The notes beneath the pieces are model-generated. The model was not told the DNA's origin. It searched no databases and worked only from the letters and a program-made list of their open reading frames with translations. 64,000 bases of DNA. Source: Comamonas serinivorans (lineage in GTDB: Bacteria > Pseudomonadota > Gammaproteobacteria > Burkholderiales > Burkholderiaceae_C). The position numbers were made by a program, and so were the translations under genes. Below are positions 1 to 42,193 of the stretch, one piece after another. Every line of letters begins with the position of its first letter. Within the stretch, counting starts at the first letter, position 1. The stretch is taken from contig NZ_CP021455.1 in the NCBI RefSeq assembly GCF_002158865.1, positions 1,096,835 through 1,160,834 on the forward strand, given 5' to 3'.

Positions 1-537
1 GCGCGCTGGGCCAACGTGCAGGACTTCTGCGACTGGATCGTGGGCCGCTGCGGCGGCGAGATCGAGGACGGCACCAACGTGATGAGCGAGCGCCGCAGCG
101 TGCTCGAGGTGGCGCAGACCATCGCCCTCATCACCTCGCTGAAGGAGAAGGAGCAGGACGCCAACCAGATCACGCTGTCCACCCTGCATGCCAGCAAGGG
201 GCTCGAGTGGCCGCACGTGATGCTGGTGGGCGTGGTCGAAGGCCTGCTGCCGTTCCAGAGCGATGCCGAGGGCGCCCCCCCCATGACCGCCCAGCGCGTG
301 GAGGAGGAGCGTCGGCTGATGTACGTGGGCATCACGCGCGCGCAGCGCAGCCTGCAGGTGAGCTGGAGCCGTCAGCGCAAGAAAGGGCGCAGCCACGTGC
401 CGGCCTTGCCCAGCCGCTTCATCGGCGAGATGGCGCTGAACCACGCCACCACCCGCGAAGACCCGCGCGAAAAGCTCAAGGCCTTGCGTGCGGAGTTCGC
501 CAAGCGCGCCGCCAGCGCGCCGCGCGGCAATGCCTGA
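1..537 (+). CDS. ATP-dependent DNA helicase (Rep/UvrD family), C-terminal fragment; 5' end lies outside the window
   Basis: Frame of ORF 16..537 is open from nt 1. Conserved UvrD/Rep C-terminal motifs: LSTLHASKGLEWPHVMLVGVVEGLLPF and MYVGITRAQRSLQVSW. Confidence 0.6.
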   Translation, partial: ARWANVQDFCDWIVGRCGGEIEDGTNVMSERRSVLEVAQTIALITSLKEKEQDANQITLSTLHASKGLEWPHVMLVGVVEGLLPFQSDAEGAPPMTAQRVEEERRLMYVGITRAQRSLQVSWSRQRKKGRSHVPALPSRFIGEMALNHATTREDPREKLKALRAEFAKRAASAPRGNA

Positions 538-594
538 TCAAGGGTATGACTGTGCTTCCGTTGTTTCTACATCGGCAATGAGGCGATACTGCGC

Positions 595-1095
595 ATGATG
601 CATCCCGACGCCACGACCCACACCAATCCCGCTTCGTCGGATGCTCGGGCCACCTTGCGCCTGCACGGCCTGGTGCCTTGCGGGGCCTGGGCGCCCGGCC
701 GCTACGCCAGCGTGAGCCATTTGCGCGACCAATGCGCGTTTGGCCTCGCCTACGAGGTGCAGGCCGATTGGCGCACGCGGCCGCATGTGGTGTACGCCTT
801 CGTCGCCGGCGAGGCGGTGCTCTATGTCGGCGAAACCTCGGCCGGCATGGCGGCGCGCTTTGCCGGTTACCGCTACGGCAACCCCCTGGTCAGCGACACG
901 GACAACCGTGTCAAGCTCGCCCTCACGCGCACCCTGCAGGCGGGCGGCAGCGTGGCCATCTGGGCCACGCAACCGCAGGCCAGCCTCAGCCTGCCGGACG
1001 GCACGGTGTTGACCGTGCCCGCCAGCAAGCCGCTGGAGGAGGTCCTGATCGCGCGGATTCGGCCCGAGCTGAATGTGAAAATGCTCGCTGTCTGA
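595..1095 (+). CDS. hypothetical protein with GIY-YIG-like motif (VVYAFVAGEAVLYVGETS)
   Basis: ORF with high GC3. Motif resembles the GIY-YIG nuclease core. No other homology recognised. Confidence 0.4.
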   Translation: MMHPDATTHTNPASSDARATLRLHGLVPCGAWAPGRYASVSHLRDQCAFGLAYEVQADWRTRPHVVYAFVAGEAVLYVGETSAGMAARFAGYRYGNPLVSDTDNRVKLALTRTLQAGGSVAIWATQPQASLSLPDGTVLTVPASKPLEEVLIARIRPELNVKMLAV

Positions 1096-1112
1096 TTTGC
1101 TGGATCGCCCCC

Positions 1113-1760
1113 ATGCCTCAACCCCACGACACCGCCACGTCCCTGTCTTCGCCCGTCACGTTCACGCGCCTGGTGCGGGCGCGCCTGTGGCGCTGGGCCG
1201 GTTTGATGGGGGTGCTGGGGCTCACGGCCTGCGCCTCGGACGATTTCATGCGGCAGTACCAGGACATCGGCCGCACGACCTTGCCCGCGCTGCCCACGCC
1301 GCGGGCCACGGCCGAACCAGGCACCTGCCGGGACGTGACGCGCATGACCGCCCGCGACCTCTACGGCGAGTGGCGGCTCAGCCTGCTCAAGCCCAACGTG
1401 GGCGGCCACATGCGGCTGTCGCAGCACCCCGAGTTCTCGGAAAGCCTGCGCGGCCACATCGCCTACGGCGACGTGCAGGCCATTGCCTCGGGCGACGTCA
1501 CGGCCGGCCAGTTCGACCTCGACGAGTCTGCGGACGGCAAGCGCATGACCGCCACCTGGTCCGGCAAACTGACGCCCGCCGCCTGTGGCAACGAAATCCG
1601 CGGCACCTGGACCGACCTGGAGCGCGACCAGAGCAGCGCTTTCGTGCTTCGGCGCGTGGGCGGCGCAGCGGCTGCGGCCGACGCCGCCAGCACGCCCGTG
1701 CGCGACGAACTGCCCGATGGCGTGCAGGTGTTGCCGGTGCCCGAACCGTCGCTGAACTGA
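1113..1760 (+). CDS. lipoprotein of unknown function
   Basis: ATG at 1113 in frame of ORF 678..1760. N-terminal signal peptide with lipobox LGLTAC. High GC3. Confidence 0.5.
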   Translation: MPQPHDTATSLSSPVTFTRLVRARLWRWAGLMGVLGLTACASDDFMRQYQDIGRTTLPALPTPRATAEPGTCRDVTRMTARDLYGEWRLSLLKPNVGGHMRLSQHPEFSESLRGHIAYGDVQAIASGDVTAGQFDLDESADGKRMTATWSGKLTPAACGNEIRGTWTDLERDQSSAFVLRRVGGAAAAADAASTPVRDELPDGVQVLPVPEPSLN

Positions 1761-1829
1761 GGCCTCAGCCGGGGCTGCGCGTGGCGCGGCTCCGGGCCGC
1801 GTCGGGCAAACAAACGCGTGGGATGCGGA

Positions 1830-2906
1830 TCAGGCGGCGTGGCCCGTGGCCAGGCTGCTCCGCGTCCTGACCTCGCCCGTTCGCTCGTCGATGGGCAGCA
1901 AGGGCAGGCGATCGCGGTGGTCGCCATACAGGCGCGCCACGCGTTCGTCCAGGCTGGGGTGGCTGGCCAGGCGTTCGCGCCAGCCACTGGCATTCTGTTC
2001 CCACTCGACCAGCAGCAGGTGGGCCATGGGCGCCCACAGCACGTCGCCCAGCGGCAGGCGGTTGGCGCGGCTGACGCTGTGCGTGACCTGCTGCGTCATC
2101 ACCTTGCGCAGCACGCCGCCCAGGCCGTCCACGTCGCGCGTCCACTGCACAGCGTGCGCGTCGGCCAGAAACTCGCGCTCGCGCGAGGCTGCGGCCTGCA
2201 GCAGGCGCGCGCCCAGCCAGCCCACGAAGCCCAGCGCCATGAACAGCCAGCCGATGGCGATCAGCTTGGGCAGCGGCAGGTCTTCGCGGCTGGTGTCGCT
2301 CATCCACTGGCCGTAGGTGTGCACCATGGCCAGGCCGCCCACCATGCCCATGAGCTGCAGGTTGAAGGCGGTGTCGCCCTCGCGCAGGTGGCTGCACTCG
2401 TGCGCCACCAGGCCTTGCAGCTCGCGGCGCGACAGGTGGGTGAGCGCGCCCTGCGTGACCACGATCAGCCAGTCCTTGGGCGTGAGCCCCAGCGCGAAGG
2501 CGTTGATCTCGTCGGCGCGGGGCAGCAGCATGACGCGCGGGCGGCGCATCTGGGCCGACAGCGCCATTTCGCTGACGATGTTGGCCAGCCGCTGCTCGGC
2601 AAAGCTGTGGGCCGTGCGCAGCTCGCGCGCACCCAGCCGCTGCGCCAGGCGCTCGCTGCCCTGGCGGATGACGCCGGCTTCCAGCCACCAGCCGCCCAGC
2701 GTCAGGAACAGCGCAATGCCCACGAAGGGCCAGGCCACCTTGGCGGGCAGGTGAAACGGCTGGCCGCTGACCAGGCTGATGACCCAGGCGCCACCCGCCA
2801 GCACGCCCAGCGGCGCCAGCACCGTGGCGGCGCTGACCAGGGCGAACGCCAGCATCAGCCGGCGCGAGCGTCGGCGGGCGGTGGCCTGGTGATCGAAGAA
2901 GCGCAT
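1830..2906 (-). CDS. M48 family zinc metallopeptidase (HtpX-like)
   Basis: HEXXH motif (HECSHL), N-terminal TM helices, ERVARL C-terminal motif typical of the M48/HtpX family. Confidence 0.8.
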   Translation of the reverse strand: MRFFDHQATARRRSRRLMLAFALVSAATVLAPLGVLAGGAWVISLVSGQPFHLPAKVAWPFVGIALFLTLGGWWLEAGVIRQGSERLAQRLGARELRTAHSFAEQRLANIVSEMALSAQMRRPRVMLLPRADEINAFALGLTPKDWLIVVTQGALTHLSRRELQGLVAHECSHLREGDTAFNLQLMGMVGGLAMVHTYGQWMSDTSREDLPLPKLIAIGWLFMALGFVGWLGARLLQAAASREREFLADAHAVQWTRDVDGLGGVLRKVMTQQVTHSVSRANRLPLGDVLWAPMAHLLLVEWEQNASGWRERLASHPSLDERVARLYGDHRDRLPLLPIDERTGEVRTRSSLATGHAA

Positions 2907-7901: not shown

Positions 7902-8633
7902 ATGAGCACCACGCAGGACCTGGTCACCGCACTCAAACACGAACTGAAGGCCGCGCAGATGACCTATGCGGACCTGGCCAAGGAGCTCGGCATGGCCGAG
8001 TCCAGCGTCAAACGCATGCTGGCCAAAGGCGACATGCCGCTGACCCGCATCGACGCCATCTGCCGTGCGCTCAAGCTCGACTTTGCCGACCTGGCGCGCC
8101 GCGTGGCCGACGCCCAGCCCCTGCTCAGCCAGCTCACGCAGGCCCAGGAGGTGGCCGTGGTGGCGGACAAAAAGCTGCTGCTGTGCGCCATCTGCGTGCT
8201 GAGCCACTGGACGCTGGAGCAGATCTGCGAGGCCTACCGCATCGACGAGCCCGAGTGCATCCGCCACCTGGTGATGCTCGACCGCATCGGCATCATCGAG
8301 CTGCGGCCGCTGAACCGCTACCGCCTGAAGCTGGCCAAGACCTTCCGCTGGCGGCCCAACGGCCCGGTGATGGATTTCTTCCGCGAGAACGTGCTGCTGG
8401 ATTACTACGGCGGCAGCTTCGACCGCGACGACGAGGTGCTGCAGCTGGTGCACGGCACCATCGGCCACAGCATGGGGCCGGTGTTCGTCGAACGCATCCA
8501 GCGCATTGCGCAGGACTTTGCCAAGCAGCACCTGGCCGATCAGAAGCTGCCTGACGACATGCGCGAGGGCTACACCCTGCTGCTGTCCATGCGGCGCTGG
8601 GAATTCGCGGCCTTCACCGCCTTGCGGCGCTGA
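7902..8633 (+). CDS. XRE-family HTH transcriptional regulator
   Basis: N-terminal HTH (TYADLAKELGMAESSVKRMLAKG). ATG 7902 preceded by GGAGGGAGG RBS. Confidence 0.65.
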   Translation: MSTTQDLVTALKHELKAAQMTYADLAKELGMAESSVKRMLAKGDMPLTRIDAICRALKLDFADLARRVADAQPLLSQLTQAQEVAVVADKKLLLCAICVLSHWTLEQICEAYRIDEPECIRHLVMLDRIGIIELRPLNRYRLKLAKTFRWRPNGPVMDFFRENVLLDYYGGSFDRDDEVLQLVHGTIGHSMGPVFVERIQRIAQDFAKQHLADQKLPDDMREGYTLLLSMRRWEFAAFTALRR

Positions 8634-27512: not shown

Positions 27513-27883
27513 GGCGAGGTCCTTGGCAAAAACCGACGGCTGACGAGGGACGGGCACGGCGGGCATGCCGTGCGCGGGTTCACTGCCCGGCCAGCTTTGC
27601 AAGCCTGGGCGGCCGAGGCTGTGCTTTAGGCGTCAGCGCAGGCCGCAGATGCCGTGCCTGGCCGGTGGCGAACGCCCGCCTGCGGCCGCGGAGCGCGCGG
27701 CGGCCAGGCGGACTAAAATCACCGGCTTCGCACCAAGGAGCGCTGCAGTTGGCCCAGGCCTTGCCTGGCCGGGCCTGTCAGGCTTGGTGCGGAACGTGTC
27801 GCGCCGGCCACGCCTGCGCTGGCGCGTGGTGTCAACGGCGCTCACCTGTTGTGTTGCTTGTCGGTTTTTTGCAGGTGAGTGTG

Positions 27884-30652
<2,769 letters not shown>

Positions 30653-31420: not shown

Positions 31421-32581
31421 TCACCCTGGCTGGCGCAGCGTCACCAGGCCGTTCAGCACCTGATCGAGCCCGCCGACGACGGAGATCTTGTCGATGCGCT
31501 CGGCCACGCGCTCCAGCGTTTCCAGCTCCTTCATGCGCAGGGCGACGGGGTTGCCCTCCATCACCTTGGCGGTGTTCAACAGCGAACGCGTGGCCGCCGT
31601 TTCCTCGCGGCGGCGGATCACGTTGGCCTGGGCCGACTTTTCGGCCTCCACGACCTGGGCGAGGATGGTCTTCATCTCGCCGGGCAGGATGATGTCTTTC
31701 ACGCCCACGCTGTCCAGCGCCACGCCCGATTCAGCCAGGCGCTCGCGCACCTGGGCCAGCACGGCGCCATCGATGGCGGCCTTGTTTTCCAGCAACGCAT
31801 CCAGGTTCTGTTCGCCCACGGCGGCGCGCAGGCCGAATTGCAGCTCGCGGTAGACGTGGTCGGCTGGCTTGGGCATGCGCGCCAGCGCGCGCTGCACGTC
31901 GGTGAAGTGCCACACGGCCGAGAGGTTCAGTCGCAGGCCCACCTTGTCACGGGTCAGGATTTCCTGGCCATTCACCTCGGCGATCTGCGCTCGCAGGTCC
32001 ACGGTGCTCACGCTCACCTGACGGTTGAAGCGCCAGAAGCCATGCACGCCTGCCGGCAGCAGCGCTTGCATCTGGCCGTCCAGCGTGAGCACGCCAGCGT
32101 GGAACTCGGGCACCTGCACCAGCAGCACGCCGTCCAGGCCGCGCACGGCGCGCGGGCGCAGTGCCACGCTGTGCAGCTTGGCCAGCAACTCGGCGGGCAG
32201 GCGCGCGTCGGCGCTCAGGTCGACCACGTCCACGCGCTGTTCGCGCAGGCCGCGCCAGAACAGCTGGCGCGTGGACGGCGGCAGGATCTCGACCAGCACG
32301 CCGTCTTCGTGGCGCAGGCCGACCTCGGTTTCGCCCAGCACCACCTGCACGAACTCGCGGGCCAGCAGGGCCGGCTCGTGGGCTACGAAGTAGTCGGCCA
32401 GCTCGTGCTCAAAGCGCGCCGGCGCGTCCGGTTTGCCCAGCGAAAAGCGTTCCAGCGTCACATCGTCCAGGCCTGTGAACACGCGGTGCTTGCCCGGGCC
32501 AAACAGGCCGGCGAAATCGCCATCGCGCAGCAGCAGCGCGCGTTCGTGCTTTTTGACGGTGAAAATGGTGAATCCCAGCAT
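31421..32581 (-). CDS. SPFH/band-7 (slipin-like) domain protein
   Basis: C-terminal half carries the SPFH signature (VGVKDIILPGEMKTILAQVVEAEKSAQANVIRRREETAAT). ATG at 32581 with GGGAGAG RBS. Confidence 0.75.
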   Translation of the reverse strand: MLGFTIFTVKKHERALLLRDGDFAGLFGPGKHRVFTGLDDVTLERFSLGKPDAPARFEHELADYFVAHEPALLAREFVQVVLGETEVGLRHEDGVLVEILPPSTRQLFWRGLREQRVDVVDLSADARLPAELLAKLHSVALRPRAVRGLDGVLLVQVPEFHAGVLTLDGQMQALLPAGVHGFWRFNRQVSVSTVDLRAQIAEVNGQEILTRDKVGLRLNLSAVWHFTDVQRALARMPKPADHVYRELQFGLRAAVGEQNLDALLENKAAIDGAVLAQVRERLAESGVALDSVGVKDIILPGEMKTILAQVVEAEKSAQANVIRRREETAATRSLLNTAKVMEGNPVALRMKELETLERVAERIDKISVVGGLDQVLNGLVTLRQPG

Positions 32582-32930: not shown

Positions 32931-33045
32931 GCACCGCGGCAATGGGCGGGAATCGAACCCGCAGCCGCCACCGAAGTCGCGGTGTTCAACCATGAACAAG
33001 TCTTGGACCGAAACCAAGCGTCACCTCAGCCCATCCGCGGCATAC
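32931..33045 (-). ncRNA. second tRNA-like structured element (canonical T-arm GCGGG-TTCGATT-CCCGC, anticodon-like hairpin CTTGG-TTTCGGT-CCAAG, extra hairpins, closing CCGCGG stem)
   Basis: Read on the minus strand. Lies about 80 nt downstream of the minus-strand sigma-54 promoter. No CCA or canonical acceptor, so it is not a standard tRNA gene. Confidence 0.45.
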
Positions 33046-33134
33046 CGCCCACCCAAGAACGGGTCTGGCGGGCGGCACCGGGCCGCATGCATGCGGCACC
33101 TCGTGCGGATGACTGCGTCCGACAGCAGGTGTCT

Positions 33135-33150
33135 TGCAGACGCCGTGCCA
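33135..33150 (-). promoter_or_regulatory. sigma-54 promoter on minus strand (TGGCAC-GGCGT-CTGCA), divergent from rtcR
   Basis: Reverse complement of plus-strand tgcagacgccgtgcca. Points toward the second tRNA-like element and the SPFH operon. Confidence 0.6.
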
Positions 33151-33312: not shown

Positions 33313-34965
33313 ATGAAACCCATTCACGTCATCACCTTCCTGGGCACCCAGCTGGACAGCGGCAACGGTGCCGGCCGCTGGGAGAAGTGGCGGCCCACCG
33401 TGGCGCTGACCCAGCACGAGGACATGGAGGTCGCGCGGCTGGACCTGCTGCTGACCGGGCCCAGCCACCGGGCGCTGGCCGAGCGCGTGCGCGCCGACAT
33501 CGGCACGGTGTCGCCCGCCACCGAGGTCGTGCTGCACGAGTTGGCCGTGGACGATCCCTGGGACTTCGACGTCGTCTACACGCAGCTGTTCGATTGGGCC
33601 CGCGCGCAGGCCTTCGATACCGAGGCCGCGCAGTACTGGGCGCACATCACCACCGGCACGCATGTGGCGCAGATCTGCCTGTTCCTGCTGACCGAGTCGC
33701 GCGTGCTGCCCGGGGTGCTGTGCCAGACCTCGCCGCCCAAGCGGCAGCGCGAGGGCGCGGCCGGTGCCTACACGCTGATCGACCTCGACCTCTCGCGCTA
33801 CGACGCCATCGCCCAGCGCCATGCGGCCGACCAGCGCGATGCAGTGGCCTTCCTGAAAAGCGGCATCGCCACGCGCAATGCGCGCTTCAACGCGCTCATC
33901 GACGAGGTCGAGCGCGTGGCCGTGCGCTCCACCGCGCCGGTGCTGTTCGTGGGGCCCACGGGCGCGGGCAAGTCCTTCCTGGCCCGGCGCATGCACGAGC
34001 TGAAGAAATCGCGCCACCAGATCAACGGCGCCTTCGTCGAAGTCAACTGCGCCACGCTGCGTGGCGACGGCGCGGCCTCGACGCTGTTCGGCCACAAGCG
34101 CGGTGCTTTCACCGGCGCCGCCACCGACCGGCCCGGCCTGCTGCGCGCCGCCGATGGTGGGCTGCTGTTCCTCGACGAAATCGGCGAGCTGGGGGCCGAC
34201 GAGCAGGCCATGCTGCTCATGGCCATCGAAGACAAGCGCTTCTACCCCCTGGGTTCGGACCGCGAGGTGACCAGCGACTTTCAGCTGGTGGCGGGCACCA
34301 ACCGCGACCTGCGCGCCGAGGTCGCCGCGGGGCGGTTTCGCGAAGACCTGTTCTCGCGCATCAACCTGTGGACCTACGAGCTGCCTGGCCTGGCGGGCCG
34401 GCCTGAGGACATCGAACCCAACGTCGACTACCTGCTCACCCGCCATGCGCAAGCCTCGCGCCGCGCGGCCCGCTTCAACGTCGAAGCGCGCCGCGCCTAC
34501 CTGCGCTTTGCGCAAAGCGGCGAAGCGCTGTGGCGCGGCAATTTCCGCGACCTGTATGCCAGCGTGACGCGCCTGGCGACCCTGGCCGAGGGCGGGCGCA
34601 TCACCGAGCCGCTGGTGGTGGCTGAGATCAAACGGCTGCGCTGGATGTGGACGCGCGACAGCGCGGTGGCGGCGCCCGGCGCGCGCGCCTCGGGGGGCTC
34701 GCCGGGGGCGATGGCGGTCGATGCGGCGAGCGTGGACCTGGCCGACTTCTACGACGAAGCGGCCCTGGAGCAGATCGACCTGTTCGACCGCGTGCAGCTG
34801 CAGGGCGTCATCGCGGTGTGCCAGCGCTCGCGCACGCTGTCGGACGCGGGGCGCCAGCTGTACCAGGCCTCGCGGGCGCAACGCGCGGCGTTGAACGATT
34901 CGGACCGCCTGCGCAAGTACCTGGCCAAGTTCAACCTGAGCTGGGACCGCGTCAGCACACGATGA
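33313..34965 (+). CDS. rtcR: sigma-54-dependent transcriptional regulator RtcR (N-terminal CARF-like domain + AAA+ sigma-54 activator + C-terminal HTH)
   Basis: Walker A GPTGAGKS, GAFTGA sigma-54 contact motif, RtcR-specific N-terminal domain (VITFLGTQLD...WRPTVAL), C-terminal HTH. Confidence 0.9.
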   Translation: MKPIHVITFLGTQLDSGNGAGRWEKWRPTVALTQHEDMEVARLDLLLTGPSHRALAERVRADIGTVSPATEVVLHELAVDDPWDFDVVYTQLFDWARAQAFDTEAAQYWAHITTGTHVAQICLFLLTESRVLPGVLCQTSPPKRQREGAAGAYTLIDLDLSRYDAIAQRHAADQRDAVAFLKSGIATRNARFNALIDEVERVAVRSTAPVLFVGPTGAGKSFLARRMHELKKSRHQINGAFVEVNCATLRGDGAASTLFGHKRGAFTGAATDRPGLLRAADGGLLFLDEIGELGADEQAMLLMAIEDKRFYPLGSDREVTSDFQLVAGTNRDLRAEVAAGRFREDLFSRINLWTYELPGLAGRPEDIEPNVDYLLTRHAQASRRAARFNVEARRAYLRFAQSGEALWRGNFRDLYASVTRLATLAEGGRITEPLVVAEIKRLRWMWTRDSAVAAPGARASGGSPGAMAVDAASVDLADFYDEAALEQIDLFDRVQLQGVIAVCQRSRTLSDAGRQLYQASRAQRAALNDSDRLRKYLAKFNLSWDRVSTR

Positions 34966-35019: not shown

Positions 35020-35133
35020 AAGGCTAAGCATTCCACAATGGGATGATCAACAGCGCGCCCGCCGGCTTGCACGGTGGGGCGCATGCAGCGGCTGGCCCAA
35101 GGCCGGGTGCACGACATGGAGAGGGAGACGCAC

Positions 35134-35802
35134 ATGGCGCAGTACATCGAGGTCATTGGACAGGCCAGCGTGAGCGAAGTGGCCGTGGAGCAGCGCGTGG
35201 CGCTGACGGTGTCGCACCGCGGCAAGGGCGGTGGCATGTCGGACAAGGTGGTGGCGCACAAGGCCACGCAGCAGCGTGAGCGGGTGATCGCCACGCTGCT
35301 GGCCCACGGCATGCGGGAGCACGAATTGCATGAGGGCGGCATGGACAGCGGCACCTGGCACTTCAAGCGCAAGCGCGAGGTGCACCACAGCCACCGCATC
35401 CTGCTGATCTGCGAGGACGACGCGCGCCTGTTTGCGGCCCTCGAGGCCCTGGCGCCGCTGCAGGACGAGGGCGAGCTTGACTTGCAACTGGACATGCTGG
35501 ACGCCCGCTACGAGGTGCCGGCCGGTGCGCTGAGCGGGGCGCAGCAGGCGGCGGTGGCGCATGCCCGTGAGCATGCGAATGGCCTGGCGCAGGCTGCCGG
35601 CGTGGCGCTGGGCGCGGTGGTGCAGGTGCAAGAGCTGGCGCCGGCGCGGGAGCGTTCGGGTGCCTATGGCGAGTCCTGGTATGGCTTGGCCGCCGCAGGC
35701 GGCGCGGCTGCGGCACCGGCCATGACCCTCTTGGCGAGTAACCAGCGCACGCGCACCTTGAGCTACCGCGTGCGCTTTGCGCTGCAGCGGGCTGTGCCCT
35801 GA
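35134..35802 (+). CDS. SIMPL/DUF541-like protein without signal peptide
   Basis: IEVIGQASVSEVAVEQRVALTV repeat-like start. RBS GGAGAGGGAG. Confidence 0.45.
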   Translation: MAQYIEVIGQASVSEVAVEQRVALTVSHRGKGGGMSDKVVAHKATQQRERVIATLLAHGMREHELHEGGMDSGTWHFKRKREVHHSHRILLICEDDARLFAALEALAPLQDEGELDLQLDMLDARYEVPAGALSGAQQAAVAHAREHANGLAQAAGVALGAVVQVQELAPARERSGAYGESWYGLAAAGGAAAAPAMTLLASNQRTRTLSYRVRFALQRAVP

Positions 35803-35882: not shown

Positions 35883-35917
35883 GTGAATCGCCTGCAACGC
35901 CCCTGCAGACGATTCAT
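35883..35917 (+). promoter_or_regulatory. inverted repeat TGAATCGCCTGCA-N7-TGCAGACGATTCA, candidate enhancer (UAS) about 110-140 bp upstream of the sigma-54 promoter at 36026
   Basis: 13-bp arms. Contains GATTCA as in the CTTGATTCAT motif. Confidence 0.4.
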
Positions 35918-36025: not shown

Positions 36026-36041
36026 TGGCACGGCCGTTGCG
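36026..36041 (+). promoter_or_regulatory. sigma-54 (-24/-12) promoter TGGCAC-GGCCG-TTGC
   Basis: Perfect match to TGGCAC-N5-TTGC. Lies 224 bp downstream of the SIMPL-like gene and immediately upstream of the tRNA-like element. Confidence 0.7.
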
Positions 36042-36058: not shown

Positions 36059-36146
36059 GGGCCCAGGTCTGGGGTGGCGCAAAGCGAGCGCGTCGGACTT
36101 GAATCCGAAGGGTGCTGGTGCAAGTCCAGCCCCCAGACCTGGGCCC
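36059..36146 (+). ncRNA. tRNA-like (Y-RNA-like) structured element with 16-bp acceptor-like stem
   Basis: GGGCCCAGGTCTGGGG (36059-74) pairs perfectly with CCCCAGACCTGGGCCC (36131-46). Interior folds as TG / D-arm GCGC-AAAGCGA-GCGC / G / anticodon-like TCGGA-CTTGAA-TCCGA / variable AGGGT / T-arm GCTGG-TGCAAGT-CCAGC. No CCA. Confidence 0.6.
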
Positions 36147-36422
36147 GCGAAACCCGGGGGCGCGACGGCGCGAGGCAGGCCTTGACGCGGCGGCCGTGTC
36201 GGCAAGGGTGCAGCGAGAAGCGGCTACCAGGCCGGTTGCCACGCATCGCAGCCCGTCGGCCAGCCCGACCGGCAGGGGATGAGGTCAGGTGTGCAACGGT
36301 CTGGCGCAGTTCAAGGAGAACGCCCGACCATGCATCGGGAAGGTGCTGGACAAGCCAGCCGCCAGACCGTTGCGCATGGGCCAGTCCCCGTCCCGATCCA
36401 CACGAACACAGGGAGAGCGGCC

Positions 36423-39320
36423 ATGGGCCAGCACGACGAAGAGCACTCACCGGACGCCGGTGAGCACCCGGTGCCGCCGGCGCATGCGGCATCCGGGCTT
36501 GCCCAGGCGAACCCGGGCTGGGCAGCCGGCCAGCTTGCACGCGCCCGTGCGGCTTTGGCACAGGCACAGGTACAGCGGGACCCGTCAGGGCCCGACGCGG
36601 CCGGCGCTGCGTCATCCGCGGATACCGACGCTGCAGGCCACGCCGTGGCGCGTGCGCTGGCCAAGGTGAATGCCTGGCGCCAGGCCTTGGCCGGCATGGC
36701 CAGTGGCGAGCTGCAGGTGGGGTCGCGCACGCCGCTGCGCAACGTGGCGGCCTGGCTCACGCCGAATGTGTTGCACGGCGGATTCGCCTCGGGCCAGCTG
36801 ATGGCCGGGGGGCGCGCGCAAGCACACGAGACGCACTGGCTGGCGCAACTGGCGGCCGGTCAGCCGCTGGGCAGCACGCCGACCGACTGTGCCCGGATGG
36901 CCACGCTGGCGGCACAGCCCGTGGACCGCAGCACGCTGCCCCAGAAGCTGGACCGCACGCCGCTGAACGACTGGTTCCTGACCGAGGCGGGCCTGCAGCA
37001 GCTGATGCAGTGGCTGGACGACGGCCGCTGGCGCATCGCCGTGCCCGAGGAGGGCGCCTTGCTGGTGGTGGCCTGGCTGCTGAGGCAGGGGCATGACACC
37101 TCGGCGGCCCGCCTGTTGGACACCCTGTCGCCCTACTGGCACCGCGTTCGCTTTTACCCGCAGCCCGCTGCGACGCCCATGCCGGCGCTCGACCGCGTGA
37201 GCCTGCGCAGCGCGCAGGACGTGATGGCGCAGTTGAACCAGCTGCAGACGCCGCCCGCGGTGCTGGCCCAGCACCAAGCCATCCACGTGTGGCGCCCCTT
37301 GCTCGACGAGCTGGTGCTGCTGTGGCTGCAGGCCGTGCCCGGCGCGCTGCACGGCCCTGACGCTGCCGCGGCCCATGGCGAATCCGGGCGAGGTGCCGAC
37401 GGCGCCGTGACGGATGCGCTGCCGCGCCTGCGTGCCGGCACGCGCGAGGCCGAAGGCGGCTTGCCCCTGGCCGAGCCCGACGCCGACTGGCGGCAGCAGG
37501 CGGCGGCCTGGCGCCTGCGGGCGCGCGAGGCCGAGGCGCAGCACACGCGCAGCCGGGCGCACCGCAAGCCCGGCTCGCACGTGGCGCAGTTGTGGGCCAT
37601 GCTGGACCAGGTGCTGCAAGGTCAGGCCCTGAGCGAGGCACAGCGCCGCCGGCTGCGCTTTGTGCTGGCGTGCCAGGTCAGCGCCCATGGCGTGCCAGGC
37701 GATGCGAGGCACCACACCTGGCGCGCCGCGCAACGGGCGCAGACCGACACCGTGTGGCGCGCCCACTGGGCGTACGCACTGGCCGCGCGCGTGCAGGCGC
37801 AGGGCCCCTACGCGCTGGGCGATGGCCTGCCGGATCTGGACACCGCGCTGCAAGCTGCCACGGCGCAAGAGGCACAACAACATGCGCACCTGCCCGAAGG
37901 CACCGTGGTCTGGCCCAGCCTGCGCCGCAAGCTGCGCCGCGCCCACTTGGCCACCGTGCCGCAGCTGGTGCAAGCCGGCATCGTGCCGTCGAGCGAGGTG
38001 CTGGCCAGCGTGCTGCCCGGCACCACGGGCGCACAGCTGGCGCGCACCATGCCCGATGCGGCCAGCGCGCGGCTGCTGGGCGCGCTGTGGCGTGCGTTTC
38101 GCGGGCGACGCTCGGTGCTGCTGCTGAACCACGAGTCGCAGGTGCGCTTTCACGAGCTGCCCTGGGTGCTGCGCTTGCAGCAGCACGCCTGCGTGCCGGC
38201 GACGGCCGCCGGGACCGAGGGCGATTCGGCACATCGCTGGGACATGGCCGGCCTGGCGCGCAGCCAGGCGTTGGCGCAGCTGGATGCGGCCGCGCGCCTG
38301 GCGCTGACGCAATTCCCGCAATCGGCCTTCCCGAACCCGCTGCTGTGGGAGCTTCGCGCGCTGGCCGAGCAGGGTGGCTGGCAGCCGCCGTGGGTCGAAG
38401 ACATCGCGGCCGACATCTTCATGGGCAGCTTTGGGCCCAAGTTCGGGCAGGCCGTGCACGACGCGCTGCCCTGGTTGCAGGGCAGCCTGTATGCGCAGCA
38501 TTTCCAGCTCGACCTGGAGGCGCTGCGCCTGGCCATGGCGCCGGCCGTGGCCTGCCACGCGGCCTTTCAGCGTTACGCCGAAACGCCAGCGGGCTCACCC
38601 GGCAACCCCGCGGCCAAGCGCGAACAACAGGCCTTGCTGCAGCGCTATCACGCGGCGCCCGACCTGCTGGTGGCGCACCTGCGTGCGCGCACGGGCTGGT
38701 CGGCCGACGCCCGCGGCGTGGGCGCGAATGGCGCCGTCATCGAGCAGATGGGCCTGGTCAGCACGGCCAACTTCGCGCCGCTGGCGCAGCGCTTTGGCTG
38801 GGGCGTGGCCGGTGCCGGTTTGCGCGATGCCACGGCCCAGGCGCGCGAGCTCCAGGGGTGGGCGCAGGCCGCACGCACGGGCTTCGAGCGGCTGTGCGCG
38901 GGGCTGGACCTGGGCGTGCGCGAAGCCGGCGCCATGCTGGACAAGCCGCCAACCCAGATCCAGGCGACAAACCCGGCGGATGCCCATGCGGCAGCGACAG
39001 AAGCCCAGGCCGCCGACCGCCTGCTGGCCGAGCGCGTGCGCCGGGCCGCCACCAGCTGGCGCCAGGTCGTGCTGCTGCTGAGCCTGCTGCCCGCCGAGCA
39101 GCAGCGCGCCAACCTGCTGGGCATGCAGCGCCACCTCGCGGCCTGTGACACCCCCGCCAGCCGGGGCGTGACGCGCGCCCTGGCGCCCCAGCTGGCCGAC
39201 CTGATGGCCTGTGTGCAAGGCCAGGCGCGCGACGCCGGTCGGCCACCGTTCCACGGCTGGACCCAGCCAGGGCAGCGGGGCGTGCTGTTCACCCTGCGCC
39301 AGGGCCTGAAGGCCGGGTGA
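36423..39320 (+). CDS. large (about 965 aa) Ala/Leu/Arg/Trp-rich protein of unknown function in the rtc locus
   Basis: Uninterrupted frame with strong GC3 bias throughout. The antisense 648-aa ORF is rejected. Possible starts at 36279, 36330 and 36423; 36423 has the best RBS (AGGGAGAG). No catalytic motif recognised. Confidence 0.6.
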   Translation: MGQHDEEHSPDAGEHPVPPAHAASGLAQANPGWAAGQLARARAALAQAQVQRDPSGPDAAGAASSADTDAAGHAVARALAKVNAWRQALAGMASGELQVGSRTPLRNVAAWLTPNVLHGGFASGQLMAGGRAQAHETHWLAQLAAGQPLGSTPTDCARMATLAAQPVDRSTLPQKLDRTPLNDWFLTEAGLQQLMQWLDDGRWRIAVPEEGALLVVAWLLRQGHDTSAARLLDTLSPYWHRVRFYPQPAATPMPALDRVSLRSAQDVMAQLNQLQTPPAVLAQHQAIHVWRPLLDELVLLWLQAVPGALHGPDAAAAHGESGRGADGAVTDALPRLRAGTREAEGGLPLAEPDADWRQQAAAWRLRAREAEAQHTRSRAHRKPGSHVAQLWAMLDQVLQGQALSEAQRRRLRFVLACQVSAHGVPGDARHHTWRAAQRAQTDTVWRAHWAYALAARVQAQGPYALGDGLPDLDTALQAATAQEAQQHAHLPEGTVVWPSLRRKLRRAHLATVPQLVQAGIVPSSEVLASVLPGTTGAQLARTMPDAASARLLGALWRAFRGRRSVLLLNHESQVRFHELPWVLRLQQHACVPATAAGTEGDSAHRWDMAGLARSQALAQLDAAARLALTQFPQSAFPNPLLWELRALAEQGGWQPPWVEDIAADIFMGSFGPKFGQAVHDALPWLQGSLYAQHFQLDLEALRLAMAPAVACHAAFQRYAETPAGSPGNPAAKREQQALLQRYHAAPDLLVAHLRARTGWSADARGVGANGAVIEQMGLVSTANFAPLAQRFGWGVAGAGLRDATAQARELQGWAQAARTGFERLCAGLDLGVREAGAMLDKPPTQIQATNPADAHAAATEAQAADRLLAERVRRAATSWRQVVLLLSLLPAEQQRANLLGMQRHLAACDTPASRGVTRALAPQLADLMACVQGQARDAGRPPFHGWTQPGQRGVLFTLRQGLKAG

Positions 39321-40814: not shown

Positions 40815-40828
40815 GGATGAATCAAGCC
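40815..40828 (+). promoter_or_regulatory. GGATGAATCAAGCC (reverse complement GGCTTGATTCATCC), candidate UAS about 110 bp upstream of the rtcA sigma-54 promoter
   Basis: Exact reverse complement of the CTTGATTCATCC copy at 33281. Confidence 0.4.
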
Positions 40829-40950: not shown

Positions 40951-40987
40951 ACGAGGATGGCCACACACAACTCAACTGGGAGCACAC

Positions 40988-42193
40988 ATGCCAACCGACG
41001 ACCAGGTGGAGGCGAAGCCGCGTCACCGTGACCCAGCTCGCACGGCCACCGCCGCAGACACCAAAAGCGTGACCGGCGCAGCGCAGACGGGCCGTGGCGC
41101 AGCCATCGAGATCGATGGCTCGCAGGGCGAGGGCGGCGGGCAGATCCTGCGCACGGCGCTGGCCTTGTCCATGATCACCGGCCAGCCGCTGCACCTGCGC
41201 GCCATCCGCGCCAAGCGGCCCAAGCCCGGGCTCATGCGCCAGCACCTGATGTGCGTGCAGGCGGCCGCGCAGGTCAGCGGGGCCCACATCAGCGGGGCCG
41301 AGCTGGGGGCCACCGAGTTGCGCTTCGCGCCGGGCCCGGTGCGGGCGAGCGCCTACGAATTTGCCATGGCCAGCGCAGGCAGCTGCATGCTGGTGCTGCA
41401 GACCGTGCTGCCGGCGTTGATGCTGGCCGATGCCCCCAGCACGCTGGTGCTGCGGGGCGGCACGCACAACCCCATGGCGCCCAGCTTCCACTTTGTGCGC
41501 GATGCCTTTGCGCCGCTGGTGCAGCGCCTGGGCGCCGGCCTGACGCTGCAGCTGCAGCGGCTGGGCTTTTACCCCGCAGGCGGTGGCGAGGTCACGGCCA
41601 CCATCACGCCTGCGGCCCGCCTGACCCCGTTCGACCTGACCGAGCGTGGCGAGCTGCAGCAGGGCGATGCTCTGTGCCTGACGCCGGGGCTGTCGGGGTC
41701 GATCGCGCGCCGCGAGCTGACGGCGCTGGGCCAGGCCATGGGCTGGGGCGAGGACCGCTTGCGCTTTGGCGAGGCCAGGCAGCACGAGGGGCCGGGCAAT
41801 GCCTTGATCGCCCGCCTGCGCTACGCCCACGTGACCGAGGTGTTCGTCGAGCTTGGGGCCCGCAACCTGTCGTCGGAGCAGGTGGCCGGCAAGCTGGTGC
41901 AGGCCATCCGGGCGTTTCAACGCCGGCCAGGTGCCGCGGTGGGCCCACACTTGGCCGACCAGCTGGTGCTGCTGCAGGCCCTGGCCGTGTGGCAGGCCGG
42001 ACGGACCGGCAGCCAGGCGGATGCGCCCCACGCCGATGTGCCCCAGGCGGATGTGCCGCAAGCACGCTTCTCGTGCAGCGAGGTGACCGAGCACTTGCGC
42101 ACCAACTGCGTGGTGATCGAACGCTTTCTGCCCGTGCGCTGCACGCTGACCCAGGGCCCTGTGTCCCGGGTGACGGTGCGCTGGGCGGGGTGA
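40988..42193 (+). CDS. rtcA: RNA 3'-terminal phosphate cyclase
   Basis: IEIDGSQGEGGGQILRTALALSMITGQP, GSAGSC and FYPAGGGEV RtcA signature blocks. About 37-aa N-terminal extension and an internal ADVPQADVPQ duplication. RBS GGGAG at 40977. Confidence 0.85.
   Translation: MPTDDQVEAKPRHRDPARTATAADTKSVTGAAQTGRGAAIEIDGSQGEGGGQILRTALALSMITGQPLHLRAIRAKRPKPGLMRQHLMCVQAAAQVSGAHISGAELGATELRFAPGPVRASAYEFAMASAGSCMLVLQTVLPALMLADAPSTLVLRGGTHNPMAPSFHFVRDAFAPLVQRLGAGLTLQLQRLGFYPAGGGEVTATITPAARLTPFDLTERGELQQGDALCLTPGLSGSIARRELTALGQAMGWGEDRLRFGEARQHEGPGNALIARLRYAHVTEVFVELGARNLSSEQVAGKLVQAIRAFQRRPGAAVGPHLADQLVLLQALAVWQAGRTGSQADAPHADVPQADVPQARFSCSEVTEHLRTNCVVIERFLPVRCTLTQGPVSRVTVRWAG

Follow-up and report, generated by a model that had tools for sequence, protein, structure and literature searches.

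A predicted single-unit tRNA-like RNA in the leader of an SPFH operon next to rtcR in Comamonas serinivorans

Introduction

Look-alikes of tRNA in bacterial RNA-repair operons were predicted ten years ago. According to the summary that Wang et al. give of Burroughs and Aravind (2016), some bacteria encode RtcB beside a Band-7 protein and a predicted RNA, b7a-tRNA (bioRxiv 10.1101/312249). In the same summary b7a-tRNA is said to strongly resemble authentic tRNA and not to have been validated at that point, and functional redundancy with YrlA is proposed (bioRxiv 10.1101/312249). Here, we analyse a 64,000-nucleotide (nt) stretch of Comamonas serinivorans DNA (contig NZ_CP021455.1, positions 1,096,835 to 1,160,834; hereafter the window), in which a tRNA-like element lies on the minus strand between an SPFH/band-7 gene and the divergent regulator gene rtcR. 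Comparison with related loci lets us say with high confidence that this element is a derived single-copy member of a b7a-tRNA-type family, predicted to form one fused unit without an acceptor stem.

The second described system that is close to this locus is YrlA. It is encoded in the rsr-yrlBA-rtcBA operon (PMC7790460) and is a tRNA-like RNA inside an RtcR-controlled operon, bound by Ro60 (PMC4201824). RtcR activates sigma-54 transcription once its CARF domain binds 5′ tRNA halves with a 2′,3′-cyclic phosphate, as described for Salmonella (PMC7790460).

An earlier sequence-only reading of the window proposed that tRNA mimics are built into RtcR-inducible transcripts. Our analysis supports this proposal. 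The idea is not new, however, as the class was predicted in 2016 under the name b7a-tRNA, going by the summary cited above. As to function, we think that the RNA is a non-coding partner of the SPFH protein and a mimic of the tRNA elbow, a reading to which we assign a probability of roughly 0.55.

Results

A family of tRNA-like RNAs upstream of SPFH genes

We compared the window with 160 loci that encode relatives of its SPFH protein, 80 from species-representative genomes (L001–L080) and 80 from metagenomes (L081–L160). In the usual gene order, a divergent rtcR and an intergenic stretch of about 700 bp precede the SPFH gene, which is followed on its own strand by rtcB and rtcA. Genes for a zinc-ribbon protein, a HEAT-repeat protein and an RlaP nucleotidyltransferase occur in addition in some loci. 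The same arrangement has been described in Pseudomonas aeruginosa, where PaFlo8 lies within the rtc locus (PMC13086221). Of the 148 loci with at least 600 nt of upstream sequence, 143 have a tRNA-type T-arm preceded by a D-arm about 270–440 nt before the SPFH gene starts, and 79 of 80 species genomes carry a tRNA-like element upstream of the SPFH gene.

About three quarters of the loci have two T-arms, 70–75 nt apart. ARAGORN often calls two abutting ‘tRNAs’ in these two-unit loci, with an overlap of about 3 nt, odd anticodon loops, 2-nt ‘anticodons’ and a different nominal identity in each genus. Two abutting units, which we call unit #1 and unit #2, occur in most relatives, including Acidovorax, Burkholderia and Pseudomonas. 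When 117 unit #2 sequences are aligned, they form a clean cloverleaf: 94.2% of the cells are paired, compared to 36–46% when the partners are slid against each other, and the covariation score is 0.41 compared to less than 0.09. Many double-sided changes are seen in the acceptor, anticodon and T stems, while the D-stem (GCUC/GAGC) is invariant. Unit #2 passes the Rfam gathering score for tRNA in some genera (33–69 bits) and the rest of the leader goes unrecognised; Rfam holds no family for the tRNA-like pair or for the 5′ domain that precedes it.

Conservation is unevenly spread over the molecule. Across the family, hardly any variation is seen in the D-loop (A-GU-x-GGUA) and the T-loop (UUCGAnU). 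Least conserved is the anticodon loop, which comes in at least 60 versions among the 117 sequences, many of them GAAA, GCAA or UUCG tetraloops; UUCG is the loop found in the window. Because selection falls on the elbow and body of the RNA, not on the anticodon or acceptor, the RNA would be a mimic that does not decode.

These observations bear on the suggestion, made in the sequence-only reading, that the mimics are decoys or sensors of the tRNA-damage signal. Under such a model the mimic would be cut by stress or toxin nucleases that cut tRNAs, and would either absorb these nucleases or yield 5′ halves with cyclic phosphates for the CARF domain of RtcR. The binding of just such halves by RtcR (PMC7790460) fits the model, as does the fact that the mimics would be made only when RtcR is on; moreover, two different tRNA-like RNAs head two RtcR-dependent units in the window. 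Yet the anticodon loop, the usual target of these nucleases, is not conserved and is often a nuclease-resistant tetraloop, as it is in the window. Furthermore, the RNA is retained beside the SPFH gene in about 55 loci that have neither an adjacent rtcR nor a sigma-54 promoter, and its tightest linkage is to the SPFH gene and not to rtcR. Since the RNA is kept in loci without rtcR and promoter, its core role cannot be signalling to RtcR. Of all the explanations that we consider, the decoy or sensor model fits the data least well, and we regard it as very unlikely.

Loci without rtcR and the sigma-54 promoter have a layout of their own, in which up to about ten ordinary tRNA genes and a gene for an HNH endonuclease of about 190 aa directly precede the same leader RNA, the SPFH gene and rtcB. 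The tRNA genes and the HNH gene lie on the same strand, about 1–4 kb upstream of the SPFH gene (L005–L009, L011–L013, L015, L017, L029, L032, L044 and L050). This layout echoes the TrcR regulon of Anabaena, which comprises a tRNA operon, rtcB, slipin and an HNH gene (PMC10272220).

Unit #1 differs between genera. It is a full cloverleaf in Pseudomonas. The D-arm is missing in Burkholderia, Acidovorax and others, where an acceptor is followed by a linker, a short hairpin and a T-arm. One could argue that the units are processing punctuation only, that is, landing sites for RNase P, RNase Z or RNase E, whose cuts would divide the polycistronic transcript and stabilise the mRNA downstream, in the manner of mascRNA-type and tRNA-linked elements. 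Unit #1 does resemble mascRNA (19–31 bits, which is below the threshold), the units abut without spacers, and in loci without rtcR they follow tRNA arrays of the same orientation. The acceptor stem of unit #2, however, is just 4–5 bp long and is absent from the window and its closest relatives, which makes for poor RNase P substrates, and punctuation has no need of a conserved 5′ domain or of hairpins with GNRA caps. It is therefore improbable that punctuation is all that the units provide.

The ancestral order is promoter, 5′ helices P1–P3, unit #1, unit #2, GNRA-capped hairpins, SPFH gene, rtcB and rtcA.

The reduced form in the window

The SPFH start at 32581 is 360 nt downstream of the window's element (33026–32942, minus strand), which belongs to the 731-bp intergenic stretch between the SPFH gene and rtcR. 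Its parts and the two flanking genes are as follows.

33313–34965, plus strand: rtcR, with a CARF-like RtcR domain and a sigma-54 activator AAA+ domain, divergent from the SPFH promoter
33026–33002, minus strand: linker AGGUGACG and hairpin A (CUUGG-UUUCGGU-CCAAG, 33018–33002), the remnant of tRNA-like unit #1
32998–32983, minus strand: D-arm equivalent U-GUUC-AUGGUU-GAAC-A, aligned by covariance model R1
32982–32965, minus strand: anticodon-arm equivalent CCGCGAC-UUCG-GUGGCGG, with a tetraloop and no anticodon, also aligned by R1
32962–32946, minus strand: T-arm GCGGG-UUCGAUU-CCCGC, whose stem covaries across the family
32581–31421, minus strand: SPFH/band-7 (‘slipin’) gene, 386 aa

Model R1 was built from the 117 distinct unit #2 sequences, leaving out the window and its closest clade. 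Its best match in the window is 33017–32934 on the minus strand (28.8 bits, E = 7e-8). In this alignment the acceptor positions of the element are left unpaired, and its D, anticodon and T arms all find their counterparts in the model. Relatives from Variovorax score 41–45 bits.

The textbook T-arm of the sequence-only reading is indeed present, with a covarying stem and a loop that is nearly invariant across the family; it is also the only place in the window that matches GGTTCRANTCC (0.10 expected). The three hairpins described along with it are real and covary, and it is their assignment that changes. The ‘anticodon-like’ hairpin is hairpin A, and it belongs to the lost unit #1, not to the unit of the T-arm: together with AGGUGACG it is homologous, by position and by sequence, to the GGUGAC-type linker and central hairpin of unit #1. 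R1 aligns the two ‘extra’ hairpins as the equivalents of the D-arm and the anticodon arm, so they are not extra. In the D-arm, the window shows a double compensatory change from C-G to U-A relative to the GCUC/GAGC of the family, and the fifth pair covaries as UA/CG. The D-loop retains the GG that meets the T-loop.

Folding of the single sequence is only mildly better than that of shuffles (z = −2.1 and −2.8); therefore, the case rests on the comparison with relatives. The closest of these form a Comamonas serinivorans/Variovorax clade made up of the window, L001, L002 and L081–L103, with 21 distinct sequences. A structure of 57 pairs is 99.4% paired in this clade, and nine pairs show compensatory changes, at least one each in hairpin A, the D-arm, the anticodon arm and helices P1, P2, P3 and P5. 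In hairpin A, the helix pair 116–124 is GC or AU in a ratio of 11 to 10. All four helices, those of the T-arm and of the three hairpins, persist with compensatory changes in the 21 distinct sequences.

As had been noted from the sequence, the element is not a canonical tRNA. ARAGORN calls no tRNA there, the Rfam tRNA model has no match at E ≤ 1, and there is no acceptor or CCA. In a lenient Rfam scan the best match is tRNA-Sec (22 bits, E = 0.035). We can also reject a genuine tRNA or a tRNA pseudogene, as the ARAGORN and Rfam tRNA searches are negative and yet the element is conserved with covariation. A fragment of a tmRNA was considered as well, because the only match of the first Rfam scan was to the T-arm of beta-tmRNA; at 17 nt and E = 0.91 this is a generic T-arm match, and we rejected it.

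In the fused form of this clade, about 50–70 nt are lost in total: unit #1 lacks its T-arm and both acceptor strands, and unit #2 its 5′ acceptor strand. The distance between promoter and T-arm is 191–193 nt in the fused form and 227–296 nt elsewhere. The gap is about one unit, consistent with the loss of about one unit.

In some Variovorax loci (L001 at 8150–8410, L002 and L082), the stretch from the SPFH gene to rtcB holds a further, near-identical element of about 250 nt. Its final part is a T-arm, GCGGGTTCGAATCCCGC; behind this comes CGTGTCCACCA, reminiscent of the 3′ strand of an acceptor with an encoded CCA, and a complementary GACACG lies near the 5′ end of the element. It has no Rfam match and is absent from the window.

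The promoter of the SPFH operon

The sequence-only reading placed a minus-strand sigma-54 promoter at 33135–33150. This promoter is borne out by an exact match that is the only strict one in the window and that tracks divergent rtcR genes in related loci.

33150–33135, minus strand: sigma-54 promoter TGGCACGGCGTCTGCA, −24 element TGGCAC and −12 element CTGCA, with a start predicted near 33124 from the usual sigma-54 spacing
33309–33301 and 33289–33281, minus strand: two exact repeats of TGAATCAAG that are candidate upstream activating sites for RtcR, spaced 20 bp from each other, about 130–170 bp upstream of the promoter

In the 64 kb, TGGCACGGCGTCTGCA is the sole strict match to TGGCAC-N5-YTGCW (0.46 expected by chance). 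It has the exact spacing of the TGGCAC-N5-TTGCW consensus and departs from it once, with a C for the first T of TTGC. The rtcR gene is divergent and 163 bp away. At the expected place, TGGCAC-N5-xxGC is found in 79 of 83 loci with a divergent rtcR compared to 3 of 58 without it (Fisher p = 2e-30, for loci that are not phylogenetically independent), and in rtcR-linked loci the spacing between the promoter and the T-arm of the tRNA-like RNA is fixed. We have high confidence that this is a sigma-54 promoter tied to RtcR, and we predict that it depends on RpoN and RtcR.

The window contains just three exact copies of TGAATCAAG. The third one (40818–40826, plus strand) lies about 110 bp upstream of a sigma-54 promoter ahead of rtcA, and it has the 12-mer GGATGAATCAAG in common with the copies near the SPFH promoter. 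An inverted repeat, TGAATCG...CGATTCA (35884–35916), with the same core as TGAATCAAG, is located about 110–140 bp upstream of another sigma-54 promoter at 36026. TGAATC-type sites thus occur upstream of all three sigma-54 promoters, and we infer that the TGAATCAAG/GGATGAATCAAG repeats are candidate RtcR binding sites.

Domains around the element

The structured 5′ leader of the SPFH operon is about 540 nt long. The sequence-only reading put the element about 80 nt downstream of the promoter. The distance stands, and what fills it is not a spacer: it is a conserved, structured domain that emerges from an alignment of 76 distinct leaders.

33116–33027, minus strand: 5′ domain P1–P3
33115–33105 paired with 33038–33027, minus strand: long-range helix P1, which encloses P2, CCGGUGC, P3 and GYAUGCCGC
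33097–33082, minus strand: hairpin P2
33081–33075, minus strand: CCGGUGC, invariant
33075–33045, minus strand: hairpin P3
33045–33037, minus strand: GUAUGCCGC, invariant
32937–32922, minus strand: P5, GCGGUG-CUUG-CACCGC, a variable hairpin with one compensatory and one wobble change in the window clade
32914–32901, minus strand: P6, GGGGC-GAAA-GCCCC, GNRA-capped, which follows the tRNA-like part in most loci
32898–32882, minus strand: P7, CCGCC...GGCGG, an RNAalifold prediction only

In the alignment, the junction is invariant and the hairpins vary but keep their pairing; GYAUGCCGC is invariant across the whole family. For P1, the mean duplex energy over 72 leaders is −22.6 kcal/mol, compared to −17.7 kcal/mol for shuffles (median z −1.3), and the window clade shows one compensatory pair and wobble changes. 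Support for P1 is thus moderate. We prefer it to a local alternative, the hairpin GGAYG/CAUCC at 33119–33105, which we rejected as it is broken without compensation in the window and in L098. A GNCGAA Ro60-binding motif in P6 was rejected too: GCAA variants occur, so that the loop is a GNRA tetraloop.

A closing CCGCGG stem around the element, also part of the sequence-only reading, is thermodynamically good in this genome and finds no support from comparison. The stem (33040–33035 with 32936–32931), together with an ATGG/CCAT pairing that is confined to the window sequence, reaches −23.4 kcal/mol compared to −18.2 for P1. Its outer four pairs never covary, and the single informative change (G to A in L096) disrupts the stem, yet is compensated inside hairpin P5. 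Moreover, the 5′ half of the stem overlaps the family-invariant GYAUGCCGC and the 3′ strand of P1, and no matching GCGG was found downstream of GYAUGCCGC in other genera. Despite its good energy we therefore reject the stem, as an acceptor or otherwise, as a feature of the family, for it does not covary and competes with P5 and P1; it may still be an alternative fold specific to this genome.

Does the RNA stay on the message? A terminator scan found no convincing terminator between the leader and the SPFH gene. An intrinsic terminator that the scan flagged at hairpin A was rejected, because the U-run is missing in relatives and the matches of the scan are as many as expected by chance. Most likely, then, the predicted transcript runs through the SPFH gene and the 206-aa open reading frame (ORF) behind it, again without a convincing terminator between them, just as the sequence-only reading had it.

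A leader of this kind could act in cis, and this is the main rival to our preferred reading. The 5′ domain and the tRNA-like fold would stay on the mRNA and control elongation, stability or translation of the SPFH gene (elsewhere also of rtcB); for example, a protein that recognises tRNA might dock on the leader, or the products of the operon itself might do so as feedback. What speaks for this is a 5′ leader without a terminator before the SPFH start, a position that is fixed relative to promoter and gene, an acceptor-less form that RNase P is unlikely to cut out, and the finding that RtcA and RtcB feed back on RtcR (PMC9650030). However, the structured part ends about 300 nt short of the ribosome-binding site, with poorly conserved sequence in between, and there is no conserved terminator/anti-terminator alternative and no pairing that sequesters the ribosome-binding site. 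Moreover, in the loci without rtcR the RNA lies within an operon, after the HNH gene and the tRNA arrays, more like an embedded small-RNA gene. We consider a cis-regulatory leader possible, though not probable.

Other RtcR-type units in the window

That both transcription units flanking rtcR begin with tRNA-like RNAs, each behind a sigma-54 promoter, is confirmed by the features on the other side of the gene.

36026–36041, plus strand: second sigma-54 promoter TGGCACGGCCGTTGCG, outside the strict pattern, with a G after TTGC
36064–36143, plus strand: second tRNA-like RNA, entered at 36068–36139 in the gene map, about 27 nt after the promoter, with an 11-bp acceptor and a 6-nt anticodon loop
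36279–39320, plus strand: large uncharacterised ORF, 1013 aa as called, followed by an uncharacterised ORF of 257 aa
40935–40950, plus strand: third sigma-54 promoter TGGCACGCCGCGTGCA, 35 nt before the probable start codon of rtcA at 40985
About 40985–42193, plus strand: rtcA

The second tRNA-like RNA scores 52.8 bits with the Rfam tRNA model and is called ‘tRNA-???’ by ARAGORN. R1 gives no match to it, and by these comparisons it is of a different family from the predicted RNA of the SPFH leader. Promoter and RNA are conserved in three metagenomic relatives (L161–L163), and 7 of the 25 pairs show compensatory changes in three sequences. The order in these relatives is rtcR, promoter, tRNA-like RNA, a homologue of the large protein, two uncharacterised proteins, a sigma-54 promoter and rtcA. 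As in the window, the operon closes with rtcA and contains no rtcB. In the window, a second, more degenerate copy of the RNA (36298–36368, plus strand) follows after about 160 nt. The 1013-aa ORF as called is over-extended at its 5′ end and covers this copy; its true start is probably the ATG at 36423, after GGGAGAG, and the NCBI annotation has 891 aa. The large protein has no match in Pfam, NCBIfam or PADLOC and 38 homologues only, the closest of which again lie beside rtcR and rtcA.

The equivalents of the rtcA promoter lie about 50 nt ahead of rtcA in L161 (6867) and L162 (12366). The RtcR regulon, which had been described as bipartite, consists of at least three parts, because rtcA carries its own conserved sigma-54 promoter.

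In L162, a Ro60/TROVE-vWA gene (351–1919, minus strand) lies 1.8 kb upstream of rtcR and links the second type of tRNA-like operon to the Ro60 world.

Neighbouring genes

27665–30652, plus strand: metH
31343–30723, minus strand: 206-aa ORF with no assigned function, which sits where related loci have rtcB
35074–35802, plus strand: SIMPL/DUF541 gene

The SPFH protein is 100% identical to CCO03_04730 of Comamonas serinivorans. In its predicted structure, a beta-rich N-terminal region (about 150 aa) is followed by an SPFH domain and, at the C terminus, by long helices; its nearest structural matches are HflK, stomatin and prohibitin, which form rings or cages. Pfam identifies RtcR by its RtcR (6e-76) and Sigma54_activat (5e-49) domains. 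We found no rtcB anywhere in the 64-kb window (tblastn, E > 0.7); it is present in 70 of the 80 loci from related genomes. Nor did we find a TROVE/Ro60 homologue in the window.

The 206-aa ORF has no match in Pfam, NCBIfam or PADLOC and is absent from all 160 related loci; just three homologues turned up among 5.8 billion proteins, all on short contigs. PADLOC gave no matches in the window, that is, it identified no known defence system. A phage origin was rejected, as a relative is encoded by only 1 of 2.9 million viral contigs. At the 3′ end of rtcR in an Acidovorax locus (L014, 2115–2466, minus strand), we noticed an adjoining gene for RNase P RNA.

Discussion

Our preferred reading, an SPFH partner that mimics the tRNA elbow, would work as follows. 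Once RtcR is activated, sigma-54 RNA polymerase would transcribe the leader along with the SPFH gene. The leader would neither decode nor be aminoacylated. The feature under selection would be the tRNA elbow, with the GG of the D-loop docking on the UUCGA of the T-loop. The leader RNA could then team up, as a non-coding RNA, with the cytosolic SPFH protein encoded on the same transcript and with the enzymes of RNA repair, with the 5′ domain as a protein-binding module and the tRNA-like part as an effector or substrate-mimic module, comparable to Ro60 with Y RNA. The SPFH gene is the tightest partner of the RNA, because the RNA is retained without rtcR in about 55 loci and without rtcB in the window. 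It is for the latter reason, the persistence of RNA and SPFH gene in a locus without rtcB, that we regard the RNA–SPFH pair as the functional core.

Several observations weigh against this reading. A literature search found no experimental work on RNAs of the b7a-tRNA type. We found no recognisable RNA-binding domain in the SPFH protein. Leader and mRNA are continuous, without a terminator in between, and this is equally compatible with a purely cis-regulatory role. Excision by RNase P or RNase Z is unlikely for the acceptor-less form, so a free small RNA may not form. Finally, with rtcB already gone from the locus, the fused form could be a remnant in decay. It is conserved, however, in Variovorax loci where rtcB is still present, and shows compensatory changes there; judged by this pattern of substitution, the fused form is not decaying.

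What began as one cluster of hairpins is now a defined family of more than 140 loci, for which there is a working covariance model and in which the promoter has been mapped and the 5′ domain shown to be conserved. The family can do without the acceptor stem, the anticodon, the second unit and an rtcB within the locus, but not without the elbow of D-loop and T-loop and the linkage to the SPFH gene, and this narrows the range of plausible mechanisms. The clade of Comamonas serinivorans and Variovorax provides a compact, natural ‘minimal’ version. In addition, a single genome holds an RtcR regulon with three sigma-54 promoters, two of which precede different tRNA mimics.

We may speculate further. 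The whole leader, with its 5′ domain P1–P3, its elbow module and its GNRA hairpins, could be a modular non-coding RNA of the Y-RNA kind which, together with a soluble SPFH protein that forms rings or cages, makes up an RtcR-induced ribonucleoprotein that captures damaged tRNAs or ribosomes. We think this unlikely as it stands. With equal reserve, such a particle might be seen as a bacterial analogue of the Ro60–Y RNA and vault–vault RNA particles, in which RtcB and RtcA would be exchangeable accessories. The idea of the particle as the conserved core stems from the loss of RtcB here and from the second, unrelated tRNA-like RNA, which heads an RtcR-dependent operon of large uncharacterised proteins.

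How does the element compare with known systems? One of these is mascRNA/MEN-beta (RF01684), a eukaryotic family. In the relatives, unit #1 has an acceptor, a short hairpin and a T-arm and no D-arm, as mascRNA does, and scores 19–31 bits. These scores fall under the threshold of 42.5 bits, however, the resemblance is one of shape only, and in the window unit #1 has neither T-arm nor acceptor.

With canonical tRNA (RF00005) the element shares U8, A14, G18, G19, a T-loop of UUCGAUU and stems in the normal order. It differs in that it has no acceptor, no CCA and no discriminator, a variable region of 2 nt and an anticodon loop of 4 nt.

A further system is YrlA (RF02553). Like YrlA, the family is non-coding and combines a tRNA-like module with a conserved module that is not tRNA-like, in an RNA-repair operon of RtcR and sigma-54. 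The two-unit relatives even match the YrlA model below threshold (17–32 compared to 69 bits), at the junction between T-arm #1 and D-arm #2. In contrast, the leader in the window has no YrlA match (E ≤ 5), the window has no Ro60/TROVE gene, and the arms in the window's family come in the order of a normal tRNA and are not permuted.

The closest system is b7a-tRNA. There are differences: the window has one fused unit without an acceptor where the usual relatives have an abutting pair, a UUCG tetraloop takes the place of the anticodon loop, and neither ARAGORN nor Rfam detects a tRNA. RtcB, which belongs to the described neighbourhood, is missing from the window, and this is a feature of the context and not of the RNA. 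What they share is a position on the same strand and next to a Band-7/SPFH gene, a neighbourhood of rtcR and rtcA, D, anticodon and T arms, and, through the covariance model, homology to more than 140 SPFH loci. Measured against b7a-tRNA as Wang et al. summarise it, the predicted RNA of the window is a structurally reduced variant in a rearranged locus.

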